A stretch of 64,000 bases of DNA. Source: an uncultured Spirochaetota bacterium (GTDB taxonomy: Bacteria > Spirochaetota > Spirochaetia > SZUA-6 > Fen-1364). A program made the translations under genes and the position numbers. Each line of letters starts with the position of its first letter. Position 1 is the stretch's first letter. The stretch spans positions 640,001 through 704,000 of the forward strand of contig CAWGAA010000001.1 of assembly GCA_963820525.1 (NCBI GenBank), in the 5' to 3' direction. Below, piece by piece: positions 42,089 through 58,947 of the stretch. The notes beneath the pieces were generated by a model. It was not told the DNA's origin and searched no databases. It saw only the letters and a list, made by a program, of their open reading frames with translations.

Positions 42089-43324
42089 TTAAAGGCCATC
42101 TGCCGGGCTTGTCACTCCCAGCTTATTCTTTGTGGCAACATGTGTATAAATCATCGTGGTCGAGACATCCGAGTGCCCCATGAGCTCCTGAATGCTTCTT
42201 ATGTCGTATCCCTTCTCCACCAGGTGAGTCGCAAAACTATGCCGCAAAGTGTGTATAGTGGCGTGTTTTACTATCCCGGCCTCCCTGACGGCTCGTCTGA
42301 AAGCCTTTTGAAGGGTCGTCGCATATACGTGATGCCTGCGAATGACGTGCGTCATTGGATCTATTGAAAGATTTTCAGAAGGGAATACCCAAAACCAACC
42401 CCATTCTTTGCTGGCGCTGGTGTATTTCCTATCCAGTGCTGCAGGGACGGTTACTCCCGCTTCCAATTTCGCCCTGTCCTGATTGTAGATGATCCTGACT
42501 CGCTCGAGATGTTTTTTCAGCATTTCAACGAGCTTATCCGCAAGGATAGTTTCACGGTCTTTGTCTCCCTTGCCGGACCGTATCGTCAAGCAGTTTCTCT
42601 CGAAATCGACATCCTTTATTCGCAAGGACAGACACTCCTGCAGCCTGAGGCCGCCGCCATAGATCATCGTTGCCATCAAACGCGCAGTTCCTTTCAGCTG
42701 TTCAAGTATTCTCTTCACCTCTTCTTGTGCAAGAACCACAGGAAGTCTTCTTTGGATTTTCGAAGGGACAACGGTACTCAAAGAGTTAATCTCTATTCCC
42801 AGAACATTCCTGTAGATGAACAATAATGCGTTAAATGCGAGCCTCTGTGTTGCTGCCGATATCTTCTTTTCCACTGCAAGGTATGAAAGGAAGCTCTTTA
42901 AGTCTTGTTCCGTGATCTTTCCACATTCCTTTTCACTGACATACGATCGAAAACGCGCTATCCACGACATATAAGATTTTTCCGTCCGGAACGACAAATG
43001 CTTCAGCCTCATTATCCGAGAGACGCATTCTACCAATTTCTTCCATGTCATTGCTTCCGGGTTTGGAATAACGAGTACCTTTCTGACCACCTGCATCCCT
43101 TTGCATGACAGATAATAGTTGTAGAGCTGAATAGCATACCGAGCCTGCTTTACCTGCCAGTCTTCGTATTTCTTGCTAATATAGGAAATGAAGCCGTTGA
43201 AGTTCTGATTATCTTTCGAGAATTGCCTATAGTTCGTATATATCTCAACCCATTTCTGATAAGCGAGTCTGTCTTTCTCTCTAATGTCCGCTTTGGCCCT
43301 AAGGAACTCTAAGTAGGATGTCAT
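42089..43324 (-). CDS. intI: Integron integrase with N-terminal extension
   Basis: Tyrosine recombinase motifs YGGGLR, KGDKDR, HTLRHSFATH, MGH..TTMIY, plus IntI-specific insertion ALDRKY..EWGWFWVFPS..RRHH; divergent from cassette array. Confidence 0.96.
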   Translation of the reverse strand: MTSYLEFLRAKADIREKDRLAYQKWVEIYTNYRQFSKDNQNFNGFISYISKKYEDWQVKQARYAIQLYNYYLSCKGMQVVRKVLVIPNPEAMTWKKLVECVSRIMRLKHLSFRTEKSYMSWIARFRSYVSEKECGKITEQDLKSFLSYLAVEKKISAATQRLAFNALLFIYRNVLGIEINSLSTVVPSKIQRRLPVVLAQEEVKRILEQLKGTARLMATMIYGGGLRLQECLSLRIKDVDFERNCLTIRSGKGDKDRETILADKLVEMLKKHLERVRIIYNQDRAKLEAGVTVPAALDRKYTSASKEWGWFWVFPSENLSIDPMTHVIRRHHVYATTLQKAFRRAVREAGIVKHATIHTLRHSFATHLVEKGYDIRSIQELMGHSDVSTTMIYTHVATKNKLGVTSPADGL

Positions 43325-43449: not shown

Positions 43450-43483
43450 TTTTCGATAAAACTCTATAATATAAATGTTATAT
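43450..43483 (+). other. attI site (crossover G/TT at 43477/43478)
   Basis: GTTATAT core not preceded by an attC; similarity to cassette 21 begins at this core; left boundary approximate. Confidence 0.8.
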
Positions 43484-43763
43484 CCAATCTAGATTTATAT
43501 TGATTATCGAATAGGCAACGAATTAGTAATTCAATAAAAAGAGATAATACGTGTTTCAATAGCTTGTTTAACCATGATGGCGTTGGCATTGCTCTGGAAG
43601 GATGGCGGTGTTGTACTAATGTTGCTTGCTTGCTCTTAGTTTCAATACACTGCACGTCACCGTGGCTTAATGGTCAACGATTTCATTATAGGGCTCGGAT
43701 CAAGCTCTTTCTCTTGAAACAACAACTCTTTTCTGTTGTCCTCAACACCATCATACTGGATGG
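43478..43763 (+). ncRNA. Cassette 1: gene-less family A (candidate structured RNA)
   Basis: ATGATGGCGTTG (43574-43585) pairs with CAACaCCATCAT (43743-43754); one visible difference from cassette 21. Confidence 0.55.
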
Positions 43764-43959
43764 ATATAACATGCTGTTGGAGTTGTCCGCCTAGGCTACG
43801 CGTCGTTACTTATAGCTACGTTTGCTAGGGTTCCTTCGGTTGCTGATTCGGGGCGGCAACTCAACAGCGTCGTTAGCTGCTTCTTTATTTCTTTTACACA
43901 TTTTCCTAGTCTGTATTGGCTTTATTTTCTAGATATGATTTAATATTTGTAGCATTACA

Positions 43960-44587: not shown

Positions 44588-46827
44588 TTATATCCATCTA
44601 AATTTATATTGATTAGTGAAGAAGCATCGGATTATTAATTCGATAATAATAAAAGACGTATTTCAATTGCCTATTTGCCTATGATGGCGTTGGCATTGCT
44701 CTGGAAGGATGGCTGTGTTGTACTACATTGCTTGCTTTTCTTTAGTTTCAGTACATGGCACGTCACCTCGGCTTGCCAACACCGATTGCATTCAACGGCT
44801 CGGATCAAGCTCCTTCAATTGATTAGATAGATCTTTTCTGCTTTCCTCAACGCCATCATACTGGATGGATATAACATGCTGTTGGAGTTGTCCGCCTAGG
44901 CTACGCATCGTTACTGATAGCTACGCGCGCTGAAGCATTTGTACTTGGATGATTCGGGGCGGCAACTCAACAGCGTCGTTATCTCCATCTAGATTTATAT
45001 TGATTAGTAAATAAGCAACCAATTATTAATTCAAGAATATTGGATAATACGTTTTTCAATAGCTTGCTTTCCCATGATGGCGTTGGCATTGAGCGGGAAG
45101 GATGGCTGTGTTGTACTAGTTTGCCTGCTTGTTTTTAGGTTCAATACACTGCGCGTCACCTTGGCTTATTGTCACCGATTACATTATAGGGCTCTGATCA
45201 AGCTCTTTTAATTGATTCGATTGCTCTTTTTCTGCATTCCTCAACGCCATCATACTGGATGGAGATAACATGTCGTTGCAGCTGACCGCCCAAGCTACGC
45301 ATCGTCACTTGAAACTACGCGCGCTCAGGTATTTCTTTTTTTTGAGGCGGGGCGGCAGCTGAACTCCTCGTTATCTCCATCTAGATTTATATTGATTAGC
45401 AATGAAGTTAAGAATTATTAATTAAATAATCTTGGATAAGACGCTTTTCAATTTCATGTTTGCCCATGATGGCGTTGGCCTTTCTCTGGAAGGATGGCGG
45501 TGTTGTACTAGGTTGCACGCTTGTTTTTAGTTTCAATGCATGGCACGTCACCTTGGCTTATTATCACCGATTACATTCAACGGCTCGAATCAAGCTCTTT
45601 CAATTGATTCGCTAGATCTTTTCTGCTTTCCTCAACGCCATCATACTGGATGGAGATAACATGTCGTTGCAGCTGACCGCCCAAGCTACGCGTCGTCACT
45701 TGAAACTATGCGTGCTCAGCTATTTCCTTTTTTTGAGGCGGGGCGGCAGCTGAACTCCTTGTTATATCCATCTAGATTTATATTAATTAGTGAAGAAGCA
45801 TAGGATTATTAATTCGAGAATAATAAAAGACGTTTTTCAATCGCTTATTTGCCTATGATGGCGTTGGCATTGCTCTGTAAGGATGGCGGTGTTGTACTAC
45901 ATTGCTTGCTTTTCTTTAGTTTCAATACTTTGCACGTCACCTCGGTTTGCCAACACCGATTACATTCAACGGCTCGGATCAAGCTCCTTCAATTGATTCG
46001 ATAGATCTTTTCTGCTTTCTTCAACGCCATCATACTGGATGGATATAACATGCTGTTGGAGTTGTCCGCCTAGGCTACGCGTCGTTACTGATAGCTACGC
46101 GCGCTGAAGCATTTGTACTTGTATGATTCGGGGCGGCAACTCAACAGCGTCGTTATATCCATCTCAATTTAAATTGATTATCAATAAAGCATTGAATTAT
46201 TAATTCAATAATATAGGATAAGACGCTTTTCAATTTCATATTTGCCCATGATGGCGTTGGTATTTGGCGGGAAGGTTGGCGGTGTTGTATTACCTTGCCT
46301 GCTTTTCTTTAGTTTCAATGTATGGCACGTCACCTTGGCTTATTGTCACCGATTACATTCTACGGCTCGGATCAAGCTCTTTCAATTGATTCGATAGATC
46401 TTTTCTGCTTTCCTCAACGCCATCATACTGGATGGATATAACCAGTCGTTGCAGCTGACCGCCTAGGCTACGCGGCGTTAGTGAAAACTACGCGTGCTCA
46501 ATCATCTGTTCTTTCCTGATTCGGGGCGGCAGCTGAACTCCATGTTATCTCCATCTAAATTTACTTTGATTAGCAATGAAGTAAGTAAATATTAATTCAA
46601 AGATCTTGTATAAGACGTTTTTCAATAGCTTGTTTGCCTATGATGGCGTTGGCATTGCTCTGCAAGGATGGCGGTGCTGTACTAGGTTGCATGCTTGTTT
46701 TTAGTTTCAATGCATGGCACGTCACCTTGGCTTATTATCACCGATTACATTCTACGGCTCGGATCAAGCTCTTTCAATTGATTCGCTAGATCTTTTCTGC
46801 TTTCCTCAACGCCATCATACTGGATGG
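44588..46827 (+). ncRNA. Cassettes 3-8: six tandem gene-less family A cassettes
   Basis: Bodies 44588-44868, 44979-45262, 45371-45653, 45762-46042, 46153-46435, 46545-46827, each followed by its own attC; all have the perfect 12-bp long-range IR. Confidence 0.55.
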
Positions 46828-48975: not shown

Positions 48976-49305
48976 TTATATTCACGCATATTGAAGATTC
49001 TTAGATAATTTCAGTATTAGTTCCCTGTATACGTATGCTTGAGTATTGCTATCATAAAGGGCTTTTTTCCTATTTGAGTAATGTTGTGAGATTCACCTCT
49101 TTCATTTCTTTTCTTTCCTTTGCGCGGGCCCTGGTAGTCACTAGGTCAAAGCTCGCGCCACTCTTTTGGTGGCCTCTCTTACCTTTTAACCTTGTTTTCT
49201 TTCGTTCAAGGTTGAAGTCTAGATTCAACCTGTTGCGGTCAGCTTTTTTCACTCTCTTATAGTTCTCTGCATCGGCCCGCGCTAGTCTCTTATGTTTCCG
49301 CGTAA
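48976..49305 (+). ncRNA. Cassette 12: divergent gene-less family B
   Basis: Retains GCGCGGGCC (49122-49130), GCTCGCGC (49151-49158), GGCCCGCGC (49274-49282) and the TGTTTCCGCGTA end. Confidence 0.5.
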
Positions 49306-49447
49306 ATATAACAAGTCGTTGCAGCTGACCGCCTAGGCTACGCGTCGTTAGAAATAACTACGCTCGTTCAAGTATTTGTTCTTTCTTGATTCGGGGCGGC
49401 AGCTGAACTCCATGTTATCCGTTCATCAGAAAGGTGGTAACAAAATA

Positions 49448-50110
49448 ATGGCAATTGCTCAAGTTGTTCTTGAATATATCAAGATATTGATATGGCCCCT
49501 AAGTGTCTTTATTTTCGTAATTATCTTCCGCATTCCACTTATAGAATTCCTTAGAAAAGTTCGTCACGCTGATCTTCCAGGTGGGTTGTCGCTTGATCTA
49601 CAAGAAAATATTCTTGAAGCTAAAGAGCTATCGCGAAAAGTTCAGAAAGAATATCACCAACAAGATGATACTCAAAAGCCATCTATTCCATTAACAGAAG
49701 CCAATGCTAGAATAATTCAATTGGGCCTTATGCCCTCTCCAAGTGGCCTTGATATGAATTATTACCGTGCACTAGCAAATCAGGATCCAACACTGGCATT
49801 AGCTGGACTAAGAATTGAAATTGAAATATTGGCAAAGAACCTTGCAAAAGGATTTAAGGTTACTATCAGAACCAATGATTCAGGACATATTTTACTTAGG
49901 AAATTGGCAGATAGTGGCGCTATAACACAAAACCAATTTCGCCTTGCCGAAAGAGTATTGCAATTATGCAATATTGCAATTCACGGTCAATTTGTTTCAC
50001 TTGAACAGACTGATAAAATACTCGAAATATCAGATATCTTAGCAGAGCAATATATTTCTTGGCTTAGCTGGGGGTTTAGCGATAATTGGAAGCTAATGAA
50101 TGAAAAATAA
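49448..50110 (+). CDS. Cassette 13: hypothetical membrane-anchored protein with C-terminal HEPN/DUF4145-like segment
   Basis: RBS AAGGTGG; N-terminal TM (LIWPL); C-terminal LCNIAIHG resembles an RxxxxH motif. Confidence 0.6.
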   Translation: MAIAQVVLEYIKILIWPLSVFIFVIIFRIPLIEFLRKVRHADLPGGLSLDLQENILEAKELSRKVQKEYHQQDDTQKPSIPLTEANARIIQLGLMPSPSGLDMNYYRALANQDPTLALAGLRIEIEILAKNLAKGFKVTIRTNDSGHILLRKLADSGAITQNQFRLAERVLQLCNIAIHGQFVSLEQTDKILEISDILAEQYISWLSWGFSDNWKLMNEK

Positions 50111-50251
50111 CCAAAGTGATACATATTTTATCTTACATGAACGGATAACAAGTCGTTGCAGCTGACCGCCTAGGCTACGTTTCGTTGCAGCCAACTACGC
50201 TTACTAAAGTATCTGTTCTTTCTTGATTCGGGGCGGCAGCTGAACTCCATG

Positions 50252-51319
50252 TTATATCCATCTAGATTTATATTGATTAGCAAATAAGCAACGAATTATT
50301 AATTCAATAATAGAATATAATACGCTTTTCAATAGCTTTTTTGCCCATGATGGCGTTGGCATTGTTCTGGAAGGATGGCGGTGTTGTACTACATTGGTTG
50401 CTTGTTTTTAGTTTCAATGTATGGCACGTCACCTTGGCTTATTGTCACCGATTACATTCAACGGCTCGTATCAAGCTCTTTCAATTGATTCGATAGATCT
50501 CTTCTGCTTTCCTCAACGCCATCATACTGGATGGACATAACATGCGGTTGGAGTTGTCCGCCTAGGTTACGCGTCGTTACCGATTGTTACGCTTGCTATG
50601 GTTCCTTCGGTTGCTGATTCGGGGCGGCAACTCAACCGCGTCGTTATCTCCATCTAGATTTATATTGATTAGCAAATAAGCAACGAATTATCAATTCAAG
50701 AATATTTGATAAGACGTTTTTCAATATTTTGCTTTCCCATGATGGCGTTGGCATTGGGCGGGAAGGATGGCGGTGTTGTACTAGTTTGCCTGCTTGTTTT
50801 TAGGTTCAACACACTGCGCGTCACCTTGGCTTATTGTCACCGATTACACTATTGGGCTCGGATCAAGCTCCTTTAATTGATTCGATTGCTCTTTTTCTGC
50901 TTTCCTCAACGCCATCATACCGGATGGAGATAACATGTCGTTGCAGCTGACCGCCCAAGCTACGCGCCGTTATTCGAAACTACGCGCGCTCAGGTATTTC
51001 CTCTTTTTGAGGCGGGGCGGCAGCTGAACTCCTTGTTATATCCATCTAGATTTATATTGAGTAGCAAATAAGCAACGAATCATTAATTCAATAATAGAAT
51101 ATAAGACGCTTTTCAATGGCTTTTTTGCCCATGATGGCGTTGGCATTGTTCTGGAAGGATGGCGGTGTTGTACTACATTTGGTTGCTTGTTTTTAGTTTC
51201 AATGTATGGCACGTCACCTTGGCTTATTGTCACCGATTACATTCGACGGCTCGTATCTAGCTCTTTCAATTGATTCGATAGATCTTTTCTGCTTTCCTCA
51301 ACTCCATCATACTGGATGG
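50252..51319 (+). ncRNA. Cassettes 14-16: three tandem gene-less family A cassettes
   Basis: Bodies 50252-50534, 50644-50927, 51036-51319. Confidence 0.55.
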
Positions 51320-51464
51320 ACATAACATGCGGTTGGAGTTGTCCGCCTAGGTTACGCGTCGTTACTGATTGTTACGCTTGCTATGGTTCCTTCGGTTGCT
51401 GATTCGGGGCGGCAACTCAACCGCGTCGTTAGACGGCAAAAGTTTTAAATAATAGAGGTGCAAT

Positions 51465-52196
51465 ATGATTACTGAATTCCCTAAGAACATTCATGACAAG
51501 CTGAAAACCTATGTCTACTTATATATTGATCCAAGAGATAATAGCATATTCTATGTAGGAAAAGGTGTCGGTAATCGTGCTTTTTCTCATCTAAAAGATT
51601 TTTCTGAAACATAAAAGTCTGAACGTATCCAAGAAATTACCCAACATGGCTCATGTCCAAGAATCGAAATATTAATCCACGGCCTTGATGATGAAACGGC
51701 AAAGAGGGTTGAAGCTTCGTTAATCGATTTGCTTGGAATTGATACTTTATTAAATCAAGTTAGAGGATACCAATCAAAAGAGTATGGCAGAATGTCACCA
51801 GAACAATTAATCGCAGTCTATGACGTGGAAAAGGTTGAAATAGAAGAACCCTCGATACTTATAACTATCAATAAATCCTTTCACTACGGAATGCAGCCTA
51901 TTGAACTATATGATGCAACCAGATCAGCGTGGGTTATTGGTGAAAGGAAACGTGCCGCAAAATATGCATTAGCTGTCTATTCGGGAGTTGTTCAAGAAGT
52001 TTATGAAATTAAGGATTGGTACCCATCACATTCTACTTTCAATACAAAAAACTATGAAGATGAAATTGAATCAAATGAGGATAGATGGGAATTTGTAGGA
52101 AAATTAGCTGACAATAAAATTAGAAATAAATATAAATTTAAAAATGTATCTGAATATGTTGGAGCTCAGAACCCTATAAAATATGTAAAATGCTAG
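51465..52196 (+). pseudogene. Cassette 17: LEM-3-like GIY-YIG nuclease with in-frame TAA at 51612-51614
   Basis: [34 protein letters not shown] then stop; same frame continues (VEASLIDLLG..LLNQVRG). Confidence 0.8.
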
Positions 52197-52315
52197 ATTT
52201 GCCGTCTAACATGCTGTTGGAGTTGACCCCTGGAATTTCAATTTGAACTGCTGCTTGCTTCTCGGACTCTACTGTAGCTTGGCCCTTCGGGCGGCGGGGC
52301 AACTCAACAGCGTTG

Positions 52316-52627
52316 TTACATCCACGCTAATAATTTCTTTGAGAGAATATTTTGCCTATTCTGTTTTGAATTATTCAAAGCAAATAAAGAATTCGATTTA
52401 GCAATCTTGCAGGTTTTACTTTGTTGAATTCCTCTGATACTTTTGCGCGGGCCATGTAAGTTCCCATTGGAACAGCTTGCGCCCATTAGCTGAAAGGGCA
52501 TCATCAACTTTTAACATCATTTTCTTTCGCTATGCCCGAATTCTATCATCAATCAACTAACCTTATATTTTCTTCATATCGTGAAGCTTCTTTGCTGGCC
52601 CGCGCATATTGTTCTGTTTCCGCGTAG
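52316..52627 (+). ncRNA. Cassette 18: gene-less family B
   Basis: GCGCGGGCC 52445-52453 / GGCCCGCGC 52597-52605 plus a local GTTCC/GGAAC hairpin. Confidence 0.55.
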
Positions 52628-52783
52628 ATGTAACATGCGGTTGGAGCAGACCGCTTGGACTACGCGTCGTTACTGATTGCTACGCAAGTTAAAGTAATTG
52701 TACCTGTATGATACGGCGCGGCTGCTCAACCGCGTCGTTATGACGCCCAAATTTTCAGTAGCTTGAATTGCTAATCTGATGAC

Positions 52784-52839
52784 TTGACTTCATGCCTATT
52801 GATCGATAAGATTATAGTTGTACGTAGAACTTATCGATC
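52784..52839 (+). promoter_or_regulatory. vapBC promoter/operator
   Basis: TTGACT-17-TAAGAT (52784-52812) overlapped by IR GATCGATAAG (52801-52810)/CTTATCGATC (52830-52839). Confidence 0.7.
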
Positions 52840-52849
52840 GGAGGCTACT

Positions 52850-53056
52850 ATGGCTACAGTAACCATATCCCCTAAGTTTCAAGTTGTGATTCCTAAGGAT
52901 GTCAGACAGAAACTTGGACTTACTCCTGGCCAGAAAGTGCAGACCATCCTTTTTGAAGATCGAATTGAACTAATTCCCGTGAAGGCCATTAAAAAGATGA
53001 AAGGTTTCCTTAAAGGAATTGATACTCATATTCCTAGAGAATCTGATAGAATATGA
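52850..53056 (+). CDS. vapB: Cassette 19: AbrB/MazE/SpoVT-type antitoxin
   Basis: VTISPKFQVVIPKDVRQKLGLTPG; GGAGG RBS. Confidence 0.88.
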   Translation: MATVTISPKFQVVIPKDVRQKLGLTPGQKVQTILFEDRIELIPVKAIKKMKGFLKGIDTHIPRESDRI

Positions 53057-53430
53057 ATGTTGTTGATTCTAGCGCTTGGCTTGAATATTTAGCTGCTGGT
53101 CCAAATGCTTCATTCTTCTCTGAACCAATTGAGAATATAGCTGAACTAATAGTTCCTACTATTAGTTTATATGAAGTATTCAAGCGCATAGTCCAACAAA
53201 GATCAGAGAATGAAGCTCTTCAAGTAATAGCTGTCATGCAACAAGGCAGGCTAGCAGAATTGGATCAAAGAACTGCATTAAGCGCAGCTCGTATAAGTAT
53301 AGATCATCAATTACCCATGGCAGACAGCATAATATTGGCAACAGCAAGAATAAATAATGCAATTCTATGGACTCAAGATTCTCATTTTAAAGGAATTCAA
53401 AATGTAAAATATGCTAAATCACAAACCTAA
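53053..53430 (+). CDS. vapC: Cassette 19: PIN-domain toxin
   Basis: VVDSSAWLEY, YEV, MADSIILATA, WTQDSHF; ATGA overlap. Confidence 0.92.
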   Translation: MNVVDSSAWLEYLAAGPNASFFSEPIENIAELIVPTISLYEVFKRIVQQRSENEALQVIAVMQQGRLAELDQRTALSAARISIDHQLPMADSIILATARINNAILWTQDSHFKGIQNVKYAKSQT

Positions 53431-53579
53431 TATTTAATAGTTTTTAATTATAAGATTTTTCGGGGGCGTCATAACATGCTGTTGGAGTTGACCGCCTAGC
53501 CTACGTGTCGTGACTTAGAGCTACGCGCGGTAGAGCCTTTTGTACTTGGATGACTCGGGGCGGCAACTCAACAGCGTCG

Positions 53580-54256
53580 TTATCTCCATCTAGATTTATA
53601 TTGATTAGCAATGAAGTTAAGAATTATTAATTAAATAATCTTGGATAAGACGCTTTTCAATTTCATGTTTGCCCATGATGGCGTTGGCCTTTCTCTGGAA
53701 GGATGGCGGTGTTGTACTAGGTTGCACGCTTGTTTTTAGTTTCAATGCATGGCACGTCACCTTGGCTTATTATCACCGATTACATTCAACGGCTCTAATC
53801 AAGCTCTTTCAATTGATTCGCTAGATCTTTTCTGCTTTCCTCAACGCCATCATACTGGATGGAGATAACATGTCGTTGCAGCTGACCGCCCAAGCTACGC
53901 GTCGTCACTTGAAACTATGCGTGCTCAGCTATTTCCTTTTTTTGAGGCGGGGCGGCAGCTGAACTCCTTGTTATATCCAATCTAGATTTATATTGATTAT
54001 CGAATAGGCAACGAATTAGTAATTCAATAAAAAGAGATAATACGTGTTTCAATAGCTTGTTTAACCATGATGGCGTTGGCATTGCTCTGGAAGGATGGCG
54101 GTGTTGTACTAATGTTGCTTGCTTGCTCTTAGTTTCAATACACTGCACGTCACCGTGGCTTAATGGTCAACGATTTCATTATAGGGCTCGGATCAAGCTC
54201 TTTCTCTTGAAACAACAACTCTTTTCTGTTGTCCTCAACGCCATCATACTGGATGG
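53580..54256 (+). ncRNA. Cassettes 20-21: gene-less family A
   Basis: Bodies 53580-53862 (near-identical to cassette 5) and 53971-54256 (near-identical to cassette 1). Confidence 0.55.
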
Positions 54257-54365
54257 ATATAACATGCTGTTGGAGTTGTCCGCCTAGGCTACGCGTCGTT
54301 ACTTATAGCTACGTTTGCTAGGGTTCCTTCGGTTGCTGATTCGGGGCGGCAACTCAACAGCGTCG

Positions 54366-54681
54366 TTATATCCACGCTAAAGAAATTCTTTGTGAGAATA
54401 TTTTGCTTCTTCTGTTTTGAATTACTCAAAGCAAATGAAGAATTCTCTTTCACAATCTTGCGGGTTTTACCTTGTTGAATTCTTTTGATACCTGTGCGCG
54501 GGCCATCTACGTTCCTGTTGGAACAGCTCGCGCATGTTAGCAAAAGGGGCATTAATTACCTTTTTTAGCATCACTTTCTTTCGCTTTTCCTGAATTCTAT
54601 CATCAATCAACTAACCTGATATTTTATCCATATCGTGAAGCTTGTCCTTCGGCCCGCGCATATTGGTCTGTTTCCACGTAG
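54366..54681 (+). ncRNA. Cassette 22: gene-less family B
   Basis: GCGCGGGCC 54496-54504 / GGCCCGCGC 54651-54659. Confidence 0.55.
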
Positions 54682-54884
54682 ATATAACATGCTGTTGGAG
54701 TTGACCGCCTAGGCTACGCTTCATTACCAATAGCTACGGGCGGTAAAGCATTTTGTACTTGGATGATTCGGGGCGGCAACTCAACAGCGTCGTTAGGCAG
54801 TCCAAAATTTGAGCATCTCGCAGGCGTAGTGCCCGTCATCAACATGACTTGCCGTATTCCGCTCAGTCAAGTAGCATACTGCAC

Positions 54885-55385
54885 ATGAGGATTCGGTGCA
54901 CACTGAGGCTTGCAGCCAAGATAAAAGCGCTTTTACCCGATGAATCAGATGAGCTATCTCTACCAACTGAATGGTATGCGAACCTGATTAGGCATGAGGG
55001 AACTCAATTCATAATAGCAATGAATTCAGGTACACTCGCAACTGTGCTCTTCCGCGGCAAGGGCATCATCTCCTCAATTGACTTGGCTGATGCATTGAGC
55101 TCAACGGCAAGTCGCATGTTCAAACGTAATGGATGGACGTTTGCTTTAGGACGATTTGTAGACACCGATCAAAGGAATCTGGAAATCCTTCCAACAAACG
55201 ACAAACGCATACTTGGCTCCCTTACAGAAATGATTCGATTGATAAAGGGGCATCTTGAGTACGGCGACAGAGATATTGACGCAATAGCTGACAAGGTCAA
55301 CCAAGCACCAATGTCGTATATAGATCATAAAGCCCCAAAGTGGCTTTTGGATGATCTCTGCAAGAAAGCAAAAAATGAACTTTGA
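54885..55385 (+). CDS. Cassette 23: hypothetical protein (DUF6933-like)
   Basis: IRCTLRLAAKI..EWYANLI..TNDKRILGSLTE..VNQAPM pattern; family assignment from memory. Confidence 0.6.
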   Translation: MRIRCTLRLAAKIKALLPDESDELSLPTEWYANLIRHEGTQFIIAMNSGTLATVLFRGKGIISSIDLADALSSTASRMFKRNGWTFALGRFVDTDQRNLEILPTNDKRILGSLTEMIRLIKGHLEYGDRDIDAIADKVNQAPMSYIDHKAPKWLLDDLCKKAKNEL

Positions 55386-55639
55386 TATTGACTGCGGTTC
55401 TTCCCAAAGGGCATTGTCGCCGTGAAGTTGATTTCATTCACACGAAAGAGATGGGAATTGATGAATTAAAATGCAATTTGATCGAAAAAAAGATCTTCAG
55501 TAAGGAAAAGCAAATGATTTCAAATGGCCTGCCTAACAAGTCGTTGCAGTTGACGCCTTGAATTCTGTCTGAAAGATAGAGCGCTATCTGGTACAACTGT
55601 CACGGCTGGGGTGATTCGGCGGCGCAACTGAACTCCATG

Positions 55640-56377
55640 TTACATCCACGCTAATAATTTCTTTGAGAGAATATTTTGCCTGTTCTGTTTTGAATTATTC
55701 AAAGCAAATAAAGAATTCGATTTAGCAATCTTGCAGGTTTTACTTTGGTGAATTCCTCTGATACTTTTGCGCGGGCCATGTAAGTTCCCATTGGAACAGC
55801 TCGCGCTCATTAGCTGAAAGGGCGTTATTAACCTTTCTGGAATCGTATTCTTTCGCTATTGGTTGAATTCTATCATCAATCAACTAACCTTATATTTTTT
55901 TCATATCGTGAAGCTTCTTTGCTGGCCCGCGCATATTGTTCTGTTTCCGCGTAGATGTAACATGCGGTTGGAGCAGACCGCTTTGACTACGCATCGTTAC
56001 TGATAGCTACGCGTGTTAAAACCAATTGTACCTGGATGATGCGGCGCGGCTGCTCAACCGCGTCGTTACATCCACGCTAATAATTTCTTTGAGAGAATAT
56101 TTTGCCTGTTCTGTTTTGAATTATTCAAAGCAAATAAAGAATTCGATTTAGCAATCTTGCAGGTTTTACTTTGGTGAATTCCTCTGATACTTTTGCACGG
56201 GCCATGTAAGTTCCCATTGGAACAGCTCGCGCCCATTAGCTGAAAGGGCATCATCAACTTTTAACATTATTTTCTTTCGATATGCCCGAATTCTATTATC
56301 AATCAACTAACCTTATTTTTTCTTCATATCGTGAAGCTTCTTTGCTGGCCCGCGCATATTGTTCTTTTTCCGCGTAG
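55640..56377 (+). ncRNA. Cassettes 24-25: tandem gene-less family B
   Basis: Bodies 55640-55954 and 56066-56377, close to cassette 18 and sharing its attC variant. Confidence 0.55.
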
Positions 56378-57207
56378 ATGTAACATGCGGTTGGAGCAGA
56401 CCGCTTGGACTACGCATCGTTACTTATAGCTACGCGTGTTAAAACCAATTGTACCTGGATGATGCGGCGCGGCTGCTCAACCGCGTCGTTATGATTTGCG
56501 AGGCTTTCGACACGGAGGACTTATGGAAAAAAGTGGTGAGAACTCTCTTGATCAGATGATACAGTATATCAAGCAATGGCTTGAAACCAATCAGCGCAAC
56601 CAAATGGCTGTCAGACCGCTTACCGATATTCTAGAAGTGCTTGAGTGGGCAAAACAGACCATAGATGAACTTCAAAATGCACATAGTGCTACGGAAAGAC
56701 TCGGGACCCTATTTGTACAATTTGACAAGACTTATGGAACCCTAATTGAGTTCTTACCGCCGGCACCGCAGGTCAACATAGAAGGAATTGATAGGCTCGC
56801 TTCTGCTACAACCAGTCTCGCATCTTCAGGCCTGCTTGGAATATCCGGGTCCGTTTATCCAAACATGGGTCCGCAGTGGTTAGCCGGAAGGTTTAATGCC
56901 TTCGCAAAGATGCAGGAAAGGCACGAAACAATTTCTAAAGTACGGAAGCTCTTGCTTAAGCTCGAGGCGAAGAATTCCCACCCTCCCAATATCGTGGATG
57001 AATATGACTTGATGATAGAAAAGGGATTTTATTTTAGGGGAAATGAAATTGATCAGATAACCTCTGCCGGAATAACAATGAGAAATGTTCTTGAACACGT
57101 AAATGGCAAGCTTTTATCCCTTGTAGCATGGTCAAAAGGTGAGAAAAAGAAATGGTCTAAAATGGTTGAATTTCTCAAAGCCGATGCGCTCGCGCCAATT
57201 GAGCTAG

Positions 57208-58947
57208 CCCACATTTCTCACAAATAGCGTAGCTGAATCTCAAGAACGCATAGAATGTGCTTCGGTACTATTGGGATGAATCTTCAAAGCTGCGGGAGAC
57301 TCCGAAACCCACTTTTCAGATGTTTCAAGATCTCCTGCATGCCACATTCCGTGAAAAACGTCTTGAACTGTCCACAGAAGTGGACCTCAGGGCATAAGGA
57401 TCCCGCTGAGCTTATGCCTCGAGTGGGTAGTTCAGCTACCCGTCTGAAATACAGCCGTTCTGATTCGATAGATCGCCTGACGGAAGAGCTCTTGGTAGGG
57501 ATAGCCGCTTGCGAAGCTCACATAGATGCGACGTACGCTCAGACGGACCTGCGCGCCGATCTTCAACACCTTCAGCCGAATCGTGTCACACTGCGCAGTG
57601 GCAAGCTCCGTACCCTTCAAGGCAATCCTTCGCAACGCGCTCATGATCAGGTATGCCACGGAGGAAAACCACAACCGCAGCTGGTTTGCCCTCATCGTCG
57701 CGGAGCTGGTCCGGTCCGCGAAAAGGTAGAGTTGTTGTTCCTTGATACGGTTTTCCATGTCCCCTCGGGCGCAGTATAGATCCTCATAGAGTACTTGAGC
57801 AGGGAACCGGTCCTGAGGGAGGGAGGTGACGACAAACCGCGGGTTCTCCCCCTTGAGCAGGTACTCCGCTTTGGCAACAACGCGCCTGCTTTTCGACCAG
57901 GTCTTCTTCGTGCGGTACATCAACTCGGCGTATCTTCGCTGCGGCAGCCCCGTGGATATGCACTGCCGCCTGGATTCGGATAGTTGCCGACGGATCTTGC
58001 GCAACAAACGCTGGTTTTTCGCGATTCCGAACAGGAAATCCACGTCGTTTCCCTCGCACCAGCTCATGATCGCTTCACGGCAGAACCCGCTGTCTGCCCG
58101 TGCAATAATGCGCACATCAGGCCACCGCTCCCGGATCTGGGCCACGATTCTGGCCAACTCCACCTCGGCGCCCGCGCTGGCATCTATATTCGAAGGGCGC
58201 AACTTTGCGCACAAGAGATGGTCGCCGCAGAAGATGTACAGCGGCAGGTAGCAGTAGCAATCGTAGTAGCCATGGAAGAACCTGCCTTCCTGCTCCCCAT
58301 GCACGGGATCGTCGGTGGCATCAAGATCAAGCACGATTTCCGCGGGGGGCTGCTGGAAGGAGTCCAGAAAGGCATTCACCAGGAACATCTCCACCATAGT
58401 ATGGTTGACCGTGATTTTCTTGTACCGGTGTGTGAATAGACTCGTCCCGCCGCTTGTCTCTAAACGGTTCAGGGTGCTCTTTCCGGCAAGAGCGTTTCCC
58501 TTATCCCGGTTCTGCCGTCTGTTTTCCCCGCTCACATCCAGTTTCCCGCACACGGCGGCAAGAACGGGATCTTTTCTCAGCCGGTCATGATCGTTGAGGT
58601 CTTCGTAGCCAAGGCATATGCCGAATACTCTTTGGCTGATCAATTCCTCAACTGTGTGTTCGATATAGCCTTTCTCGCGGTAGTCGGTAAAGCAGTCAGC
58701 AAACGCCTTTATGAATCCCGTGGCCTGCTCAAGCTCTCTGAGAATAAGCGCGCCAGCATCTGAGCTGATCGTGCCCCCATCGAAGTTAGCGACGACCTTT
58801 TTCTCTCCGAGGTCTTGAAAGCTGAATAAGGATGGAGTACAGTCTGTTTGCATCGTTTGGCCTTTCATTCCTTGTATATTCTGTTTGTGGCAAAGCAATT
58901 ATACCAGAGTGAAAGGCCTTTTTGTATCTATTTGTGAGAAATGCGGG
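57208..58947 (-). mobile_element. Complete IS1380-family element
   Basis: IRs CCCACATTTCTCACAAATAG / CTATTTGTGAGAAATGCGGG (19/20); CTAG duplication at 57204-57207 and 58948-58951. Confidence 0.92.
57432..58853 (-). CDS. IS1380-family transposase
   Basis: FDGGTISSDAG, GYEDLNDHD, LDLDATDDPVHG, RADSGF, YCARGDMENRIKE. Confidence 0.94.
   Translation of the reverse strand: MQTDCTPSLFSFQDLGEKKVVANFDGGTISSDAGALILRELEQATGFIKAFADCFTDYREKGYIEHTVEELISQRVFGICLGYEDLNDHDRLRKDPVLAAVCGKLDVSGENRRQNRDKGNALAGKSTLNRLETSGGTSLFTHRYKKITVNHTMVEMFLVNAFLDSFQQPPAEIVLDLDATDDPVHGEQEGRFFHGYYDCYCYLPLYIFCGDHLLCAKLRPSNIDASAGAEVELARIVAQIRERWPDVRIIARADSGFCREAIMSWCEGNDVDFLFGIAKNQRLLRKIRRQLSESRRQCISTGLPQRRYAELMYRTKKTWSKSRRVVAKAEYLLKGENPRFVVTSLPQDRFPAQVLYEDLYCARGDMENRIKEQQLYLFADRTSSATMRANQLRLWFSSVAYLIMSALRRIALKGTELATAQCDTIRLKVLKIGAQVRLSVRRIYVSFASGYPYQELFRQAIYRIRTAVFQTGS

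Follow-up and report, generated by a model that had tools for sequence, protein, structure and literature searches.

A 64,000-nucleotide stretch of DNA from an uncultured Spirochaetota bacterium (GenBank assembly GCA_963820525.1, contig CAWGAA010000001.1, here C1, positions 640,001 to 704,000 of the forward strand; the window below) holds five integron cassettes, numbered 12, 18, 22, 24 and 25, that belong to one family of gene-less cassettes, Family B. Each contains three short motifs, of which the first, the 5' arm, can pair either with a local partner just downstream or with a 3' arm near the end of the cassette body, the two pairings excluding each other. These mutually complementary 8-9-mers are invariant between subfamilies in a body that is ~50% diverged elsewhere, and folding models predict that the local pairing forms first and is then displaced by the long-range one. 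The reading favoured here, tentatively and at somewhat less than even probability, is that the motifs bound a sense-RNA domain that would fold in the manner of the tac/fbi system of hok mRNA.

Cassette borders were set by the G|TT junctions of the attC sites, and all Family B features given here lie on the + strand. A Family B cassette consists of a body of ~310 nt and an attC site, and the conserved 3' two-thirds of the body form a ~170-nt domain between the arms. In all five cassettes the local partner GCT(C/T)GCGC follows the 5' arm at 19-20 nt, with a small inner hairpin between them, and the 3' arm GGCCCGCGC, the perfect complement of the 5' arm GCGCGGGCC, is found 143-146 nt downstream of the 5' arm and lies 22 nt before attC. 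The local partner is a direct repeat of the 3' arm, with one base different. Cassette 18 (52316..52737) has its 5' arm at 52445-52453, the inner hairpin GTTCC/GGAAC at 52460-52464 and 52469-52473, the local partner GCTTGCGC at 52475-52482 and the 3' arm at 52597-52605; the alignment adds a fourth invariant block, TGTTTCCGCGTA, at 52615-52626, and attC begins at ~52630. In cassette 22 (54366..54792) the 5' arm, the local partner GCTCGCGC and the 3' arm are at 54496-54504, 54526-54533 and 54651-54659, and in cassette 24 (55640..56065) at 55769-55777, 55799-55806 and 55924-55932. Cassette 25 (56066..56488) carries one uncompensated change in its 5' arm, which reads GCACGGGCC at 56195-56203; the local partner is at 56225-56232 and the 3' arm at 56347-56355. 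Cassette 12 (48976..49414) is a diverged subtype whose identity to cassette 18 is 51% in the body as a whole and 50% in the part between the arms. It nevertheless keeps the 5' arm (49122-49130), the local partner GCTCGCGC (49151-49158), the 3' arm (49274-49282, followed by attC) and the 143-nt spacing, with the inner stem CCTGGT (49130-49135) / ACTAGG (49140-49145) in place of GTTCC/GGAAC. The 5' arm is exact in cassettes 12, 18, 22 and 24, and the 3' arm in all five. An earlier note on this DNA had described the three-way complementarity with its mutually exclusive pairings, the retention of all motifs and the swapped inner stem in the highly diverged cassette 12, and the single 5' arm mismatch of cassette 25; each of these was confirmed.

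A profile of the five bodies identified 42 copies of Family B in the genome, all on the + strand and all inside the array, within C1:688976-795798, and nhmmer found none elsewhere in the 5.05-Mb genome. Of these, 38 are full length and 28 distinct, and seven subfamilies can be told apart. Among the 38 full copies, 32 have each of the three motifs in exact form, with arm spacings of 143, 144, 145 or 146 nt, and the remaining six have one uncompensated change each. Identical B copies have different neighbours in 7/7 sets, which shows that B copies move as single cassettes. The same body subfamily is paired with at least three attC types, and different leaders and modules are combined in mosaic bodies, indicating that B copies recombine with each other or exchange attC sites. 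Classification as a REP/BIME-type repeat was rejected, as 35 of 38 pattern matches fall in the array and the family is nowhere else in the genome. Outside the window, an insertion sequence (IS) of 2.5 kb with 23-bp terminal inverted repeats (C1:731106-733613) lies within the 5' arm of a B copy, with the 8-bp sequence GCGCGGGC duplicated at its flanks; elsewhere, B bodies or attC sites are broken up by further IS copies. The arms were ruled out as an IS target, the GCGCGGGC duplication marking a single event and the other insertions lying elsewhere.

Conservation of the motifs, rather than their number, exceeds chance in these alignments. None of 26 motif columns varies between the seven subfamily consensuses, compared with 100 of the 165 remaining columns of the module (Fisher p = 5e-10). 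When invariant blocks are ranked by length over the whole cassette and its attC, the top four are TGTTTCCGCGTA, TGCGCGGGCC, AGCTCGCGC and GGCCCGCGC; three of them are the three motifs, and TGTTTCCGCGTA, which was not among the motifs of the earlier note, is partly within the attC stem. The 9-mer itself shows no enrichment over the window, where it matches 55 times if up to one mismatch is allowed (shuffles give 42.3 +/- 7.1), and perfect 9-10-nt inverted repeats are also common in longer AT-rich coding cassettes, so that the repeat alone proves nothing. A local partner matching at 8/8 positions arose by chance in 81 of 20000 shuffles of the interior.

Judged from the same alignments, Family B lacks a conserved reading frame. 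Open frames of 60-87 codons occur on both strands and differ between subfamilies, 18 of the 19 distinct runs of gaps are frame-shifting, and the variable columns show no codon phase (25/26/26 in the leader, 35/34/33 in the module). The strand composition (T/A 1.5-2.3) leaves few stop codons on both strands. No B frame matched Pfam at E up to 1, save for one chance-level match (E 0.16). Some copies, open over 75-87 codons, exceed the open reading frame (ORF) lengths used to define gene-less cassettes (150 bp, Boucher; 210 bp, Blanco); Family B is called non-coding here because its frames are unconserved and its gaps frame-shifting, and not on ORF length, and it shows neither protein similarity (Pfam) nor a codon-like substitution pattern. 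A conserved coding frame explaining the motifs, which the earlier note had named in advance as grounds for abandoning its RNA interpretation, was not present. A type I toxin or small peptide was ruled out, and no hok-type toxin frame lies between the arms: on neither strand is there a frame with a start codon common to the subfamilies. It is very improbable that Family B is the remnant of a small gene, or a functionless passenger whose arms were kept by chance or by gene conversion. Frames of 75-87 codons in some copies would fit such an origin, and some gene-less Vibrio cassettes stem from degenerated genes according to the available text of PMC11014356. The frames of the subfamilies nevertheless differ, their gaps shift the frame, their only Pfam match is at chance level and the T/A composition alone makes stops rare on both strands, while gene conversion would have evened out whole tracts and not just 26 columns.

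Folding with RNA parameters was carried out over the 27 unique copies, and growing-chain folding, one nucleotide at a time, on 8 representatives. The long-range state was the minimum-energy fold in 24 of the 27 copies, the three exceptions having a mutated arm, and the best local state was 1.3-15.5 kcal/mol worse. At equilibrium the long-range state had a probability of 0.80-0.999 and the local state of at most 2e-5. When the RNA was truncated at its 3' end, the local hairpin became the minimum-energy form in 21 of the 27. In the growing chain the local hairpin had the lowest energy at all lengths short of a complete 3' arm, and gave way to the long-range helix within 0-2 nt of that point. Of the 8 representatives, 7 behaved in this way, the GCTTGCGC variant of cassette 18 being the exception. 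The refolding barrier was estimated at 9.4-13.1 kcal/mol, at which quick refolding would be possible. The earlier note had proposed a bistable RNA in which a local hairpin forms during transcription and later gives way to long-range pairing. The order of events was reproduced by the growing-chain models; the two-state equilibrium was not, as the long-range form dominates. Within the limits of such modelling, the results support an ordered folding path with one final state rather than bistability.

On the reading as a sense-RNA domain, Family B would act in the sense-strand transcript of the array. The 5' arm would first be held in the local hairpin as the RNA emerges, and the emerging 3' arm would then capture it, closing the domain by a helix of 9-10 bp. 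This would be one final state reached along an ordered path, with no two-state switch. The likely use would be in cis on array transcripts, as a closed RNA domain that is nuclease-resistant or insulating. In hok mRNA the first partner of the 5' tac element is an adjoining downstream segment, whose place is later taken by the 3' fbi element (PMC9841398, in the text available), and Family B shares this three-arm order of a nearby transient partner followed by a distant 3' partner that closes the molecule. The arrangement is present in Family B in silico, in the complementarity and in the modelled order. Family B differs from hok in having no conserved toxin frame, and the likeness is one of mechanism and not of membership. 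Two other candidate RNA elements were rejected. A C-rich, G-poor stretch (20C/6G in 78 nt) that could suggest a rho-utilisation site occurs in two subtypes only. A U-rich tract follows the 3' arm, but no terminator was called in B bodies and the second gene-less family of this array, Family A, is without the tract.

In the two local helices, the non-Watson-Crick cells over the 27 unique copies are G.T on the + strand in 33 cases and A.C on the + strand in 2. In the helix extending the attC stem, they are A.C on the + strand (G.T on the - strand) in 26 cells and G.T on the + strand in 2. As attC acts on the bottom strand, the wobbles of the attC extension serve as an internal control, and the type of wobble in the hairpin hints at the plus strand, hence at sense RNA. 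An interior hairpin RAAAGG/CCUUUY, read from the alignment by eye, changes from G-C to A-U or G.U between subtypes, which would favour a fold. The inner hairpin remains self-complementary with a different sequence in the 51%-identical subtype, a swap that favours folding over a double-stranded protein site.

Such a site is one form of an explanation in which Family B is a double-stranded DNA element, either a promoter cassette or three 8-mers bound by one protein; read as GCGCGRGC, the motifs would be one site forward and two reverse. The direct repetition of the local partner in the 3' arm with its one-base difference would suit a bound protein, as would an arm spacing kept to 143-146 nt even though cassette 12 has four indels, which offset one another, whereas the changed but still self-complementary inner hairpin would not be needed. 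As for a promoter, a majority of the gene-less Vibrio cassettes assayed are active as promoters on the sense strand, and in-silico prediction did not succeed for them (PMC11014356, available text). A consensus scan found no recurrent promoter-like site in B cassettes, the AT-rich 5' leader, which is the easiest place for a promoter, is their least conserved part (43% identity), and GC-rich 9-mers are no promoter elements. The double-stranded explanation is considered distinctly improbable.

Several observations weigh against a sense-RNA domain. Both strands fold better than shuffles, which favours a fold without telling the strands apart, with z of -2.3 to -5.5 (with RNA parameters, -2.6 to -5.5 for + and -2.8 to -4.8 for -), and DNA parameters predict the same closure on both strands (P 0.92-0.99). 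The covariation term of RNAalifold is -0.32 kcal/mol, and of 18 predicted pairs one has a double change; the lack of any variation in the long-range helix makes covariation uninformative for it in this data set. The consensus fold keeps the attC stems, the cassette-end stem and the long-range helix, and has no conserved structure between the arms. The wobble argument comes down to two or three fixed positions, which were scored over and over in many related copies. Private mutations within subfamilies are about as frequent in the arms as in the rest (0.0067 and 0.0097 per column and sequence, p = 0.65), so that single copies are not visibly constrained; as far as the alignments go, the arms are kept by persisting lineages and single copies have no visible protection. 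The scan found no conserved sigma-70-like promoter or canonical terminator in B cassettes, there is no RNA run among the sequencing runs listed for the stretch, and amplification to 42 copies is unexpected for an RNA that serves the host.

Family A is a 392-bp gene-less cassette found at 43477-43875 of the window and in ~13 more copies (for example 44591-44981 and 50252-50643). Its long-range inverted repeat, ATGATGGCGTTG / CAACGCCATCAT, is perfect over 12 bp and stands a few nucleotides before attC, and there is an additional, imperfect 5' arm, GGATGGCGGTGTTG. Family B has the same layout in unrelated sequence. Over the whole array, Families A and B make up 87 of ~172 cassette units (47 A and 40 B), and the first cassette at attI is a Family A copy.

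A single-stranded DNA fold of a selfish cassette would take up several of these points; it is the chief alternative to the sense-RNA domain and is regarded as unlikely. The arms would then act at the replication fork or in the excised circle, and the helix beside attC would compact the body or steady attC, making excision and re-capture more frequent and so multiplying the cassette. Half of the array filled by two such families, the travel of B copies as single cassettes among different neighbours, the Family A copy in first position and the closure of the domain by DNA parameters on both strands are consistent with this, as is the long-range stem beside attC with a competing arm in the unrelated Family A. 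Arms invariant between subfamilies and mutable in single copies are the pattern to be expected if only intact copies propagate. The attC bottom strands probably lie on the lagging-strand template (GC skew and dnaA, see below), where single-stranded DNA is exposed, and excision in the lagging-strand orientation can depend on cassette length according to the part available of PMC5371416. It is the bottom strand that recombines, yet the local hairpin has A.C mismatches there and G.T pairs on the top strand. Small size and neutrality alone could account for the amplification, closure leaves the path between flanking attC sites still about half as long as before, and a literature precedent for cassette-internal structure affecting integron recombination was not found. 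Weinberg et al., 2017 state that single-stranded DNA and RNA motifs are hard to separate by sequence analysis alone (PMC5737381, available text), which applies to the choice between this fold and the favoured sense-RNA domain.

It is also conceivable, and judged unlikely, that the three-arm fold acts in cis to let protein-free cassettes multiply faster than coding ones inside an integron, and that it arose twice, in Families A and B. This would account for half of the 146-kb array being non-coding. Integrons would then harbour parasites of their own, which as a folded single strand of DNA or RNA would be excised, survive or be re-captured more often, and if the arms do matter for mobility they would add a new layer to integron biology. 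Large chromosomal integrons are seen as gene banks, yet about half of the ~172 cassettes here belong to two protein-free families. The question of what non-coding cassettes do goes back to 2006, promoter activity being the sole function demonstrated so far, and the invariant complementary motifs of Family B provide a handle on it.

Family B joins a known class of amplified non-coding cassettes, and conserved three-arm complementarity is undescribed for that class. Boucher et al., 2006 (PMC1382264) reported highly paralogous non-coding Vibrio cassettes in up to 45 copies (V. vulnificus CMCP6) and, in the text available, proposed that they are selfish elements, or promoters or RNAs. Like Family B, these are ORF-less and repeated by the dozen in one array, have close homologues only in near relatives, and are suspected of being selfish or of acting as promoters or RNAs. 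Family B differs in its phylum, in its unrelated sequence and in having the three-arm complementarity as its best-conserved part; the term 'secondary structure' does not occur in the Vibrio paper. Blanco et al., 2024 (PMC11014356, likewise in the available text) found sense-strand promoter activity in most of the gene-less Vibrio cassettes tested and cited Treponema cassettes. Those cassettes and Family B alike lie within large arrays and may act on neighbours; Family B has no recognisable promoter, and its conserved elements are GC-rich inverted repeats beside attC and not AT-rich boxes. The attC sites and the DUF1874 motif, as treated in the part available of PMC5737381, are folded single-stranded integron elements as the Family B domain may be. 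The Family B domain is unlike attC in lying inside the cassette body, in having no R/L box pattern and in not being a recombination junction. No description of a conserved alternative pairing inside a gene-less cassette was found in the literature. An integron-cassette-encoded small RNA has reportedly been seen in Xanthomonas, sRNA-Xcc1, which is said to be a single trans-acting RNA with its own regulation. It is a precedent for a cassette that encodes RNA rather than protein.

Relatives of Family B were sought by several routes. Rfam gave no match over the window at gathering scores, and at E up to 5 gave two chance matches to snoRNAs, both in one coding cassette. BLAST of the cassette body against 60 related genomes, with E up to 0.01, found no relative; many of the assemblies are fragmented, and repeated arrays would not assemble in them. 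A covariance-model search, which the earlier note had suggested, was run on 91 other genomes of the order under strict filters, scoring 27 candidates in each, and found no relative at E up to 0.1. A pattern scan of the genome collection returned 38 loci, all GC-rich chance matches without a downstream 3' arm, the best nhmmer E being 0.013 over a fragment. Of two patterns run over metagenome contigs, one gave no loci and the second six chance loci without an nhmmer match, and the plasmid collection gave no match. Public metagenome contigs of other studies (wetland, sediment and soil) cover Families B and A at high depth and barely cover the coding cassettes between them, and Family B is not private to the assembly studied here. 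Among the metagenome differences listed, the best-supported match variants seen in the genome, and none lies in an arm.

The window sits in a canonical chromosomal integron. Its first 42 kb are host DNA of 57-66% G+C, and from 42 kb on G+C is 38-49%. The difference between the array (42000-64000, 38-49%) and the host (1-42000, ~60%) is unusually wide for a sedentary chromosomal integron. The integron integrase gene intI, encoding a 411-aa tyrosine recombinase, lies at this border (42089..43324, - strand) and is divergent from the cassette array that it adjoins. Its product matched NCBIfam TIGR02249 'integron integrase' with 410 bits (cut-off 265) over profile positions 3-315 of 315, and contains the Pfam domains Phage_integrase and SAM_4. 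The array starts at ~43477 in the window and spans C1:683,875 to ~829,640, or ~172 cassette units. The cassettes are bounded by attC sites with RYYYAAC / G|TTRRRY boxes in a single orientation; 29 attC 3' ends are in the window and 173 in the array, all on the + strand. GC skew is negative on the + strand from ~300 kb to 2.6 Mb and changes sign near dnaA (C1:2,616,550). From the sign of the skew and the position of dnaA, the array is probably replicated leftwards, with the attC bottom strands on the lagging-strand template, a direction that rests on weak skew in a 4-contig assembly. In that orientation only small arrays, of up to 22 cassettes, are described in the part available of Loot et al., 2017.

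In this array the R-box stem of attC reaches 11-12 bp, pairing a cassette's own first bases with its last bases before R'', as at 51429-51442 with 52205-52215 and at 52738-52750 with 53462-53475. The extension pairs are cassette-specific and compensated, with covariation from C-G to T-A at two places. The attC stem thus covaries into cassette-specific sequence, which indicates that folding constraints are visible in these cassettes. In Family B the extension has a conserved C.A on the top strand, equivalent to G.T on the bottom strand.

Other cassettes and genes of the window were also noted. Cassette 17 (51465-52196, +) contains a GIY-YIG-like frame broken by an in-frame TAA at 51612-51614, and the two pieces have matches below the cut-off to consecutive parts of the PF22945 profile (25-45 and 57-117). 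Cassette 19 (52784-53430, +) encodes a MazE/AbrB-type antitoxin and a PIN-domain toxin as a pair in one cassette; contigs in two other metagenomes join cassette 18 straight to cassette 20, omitting it. A DDE_Tnp_1_4 transposase gene is located at 57432-58898.

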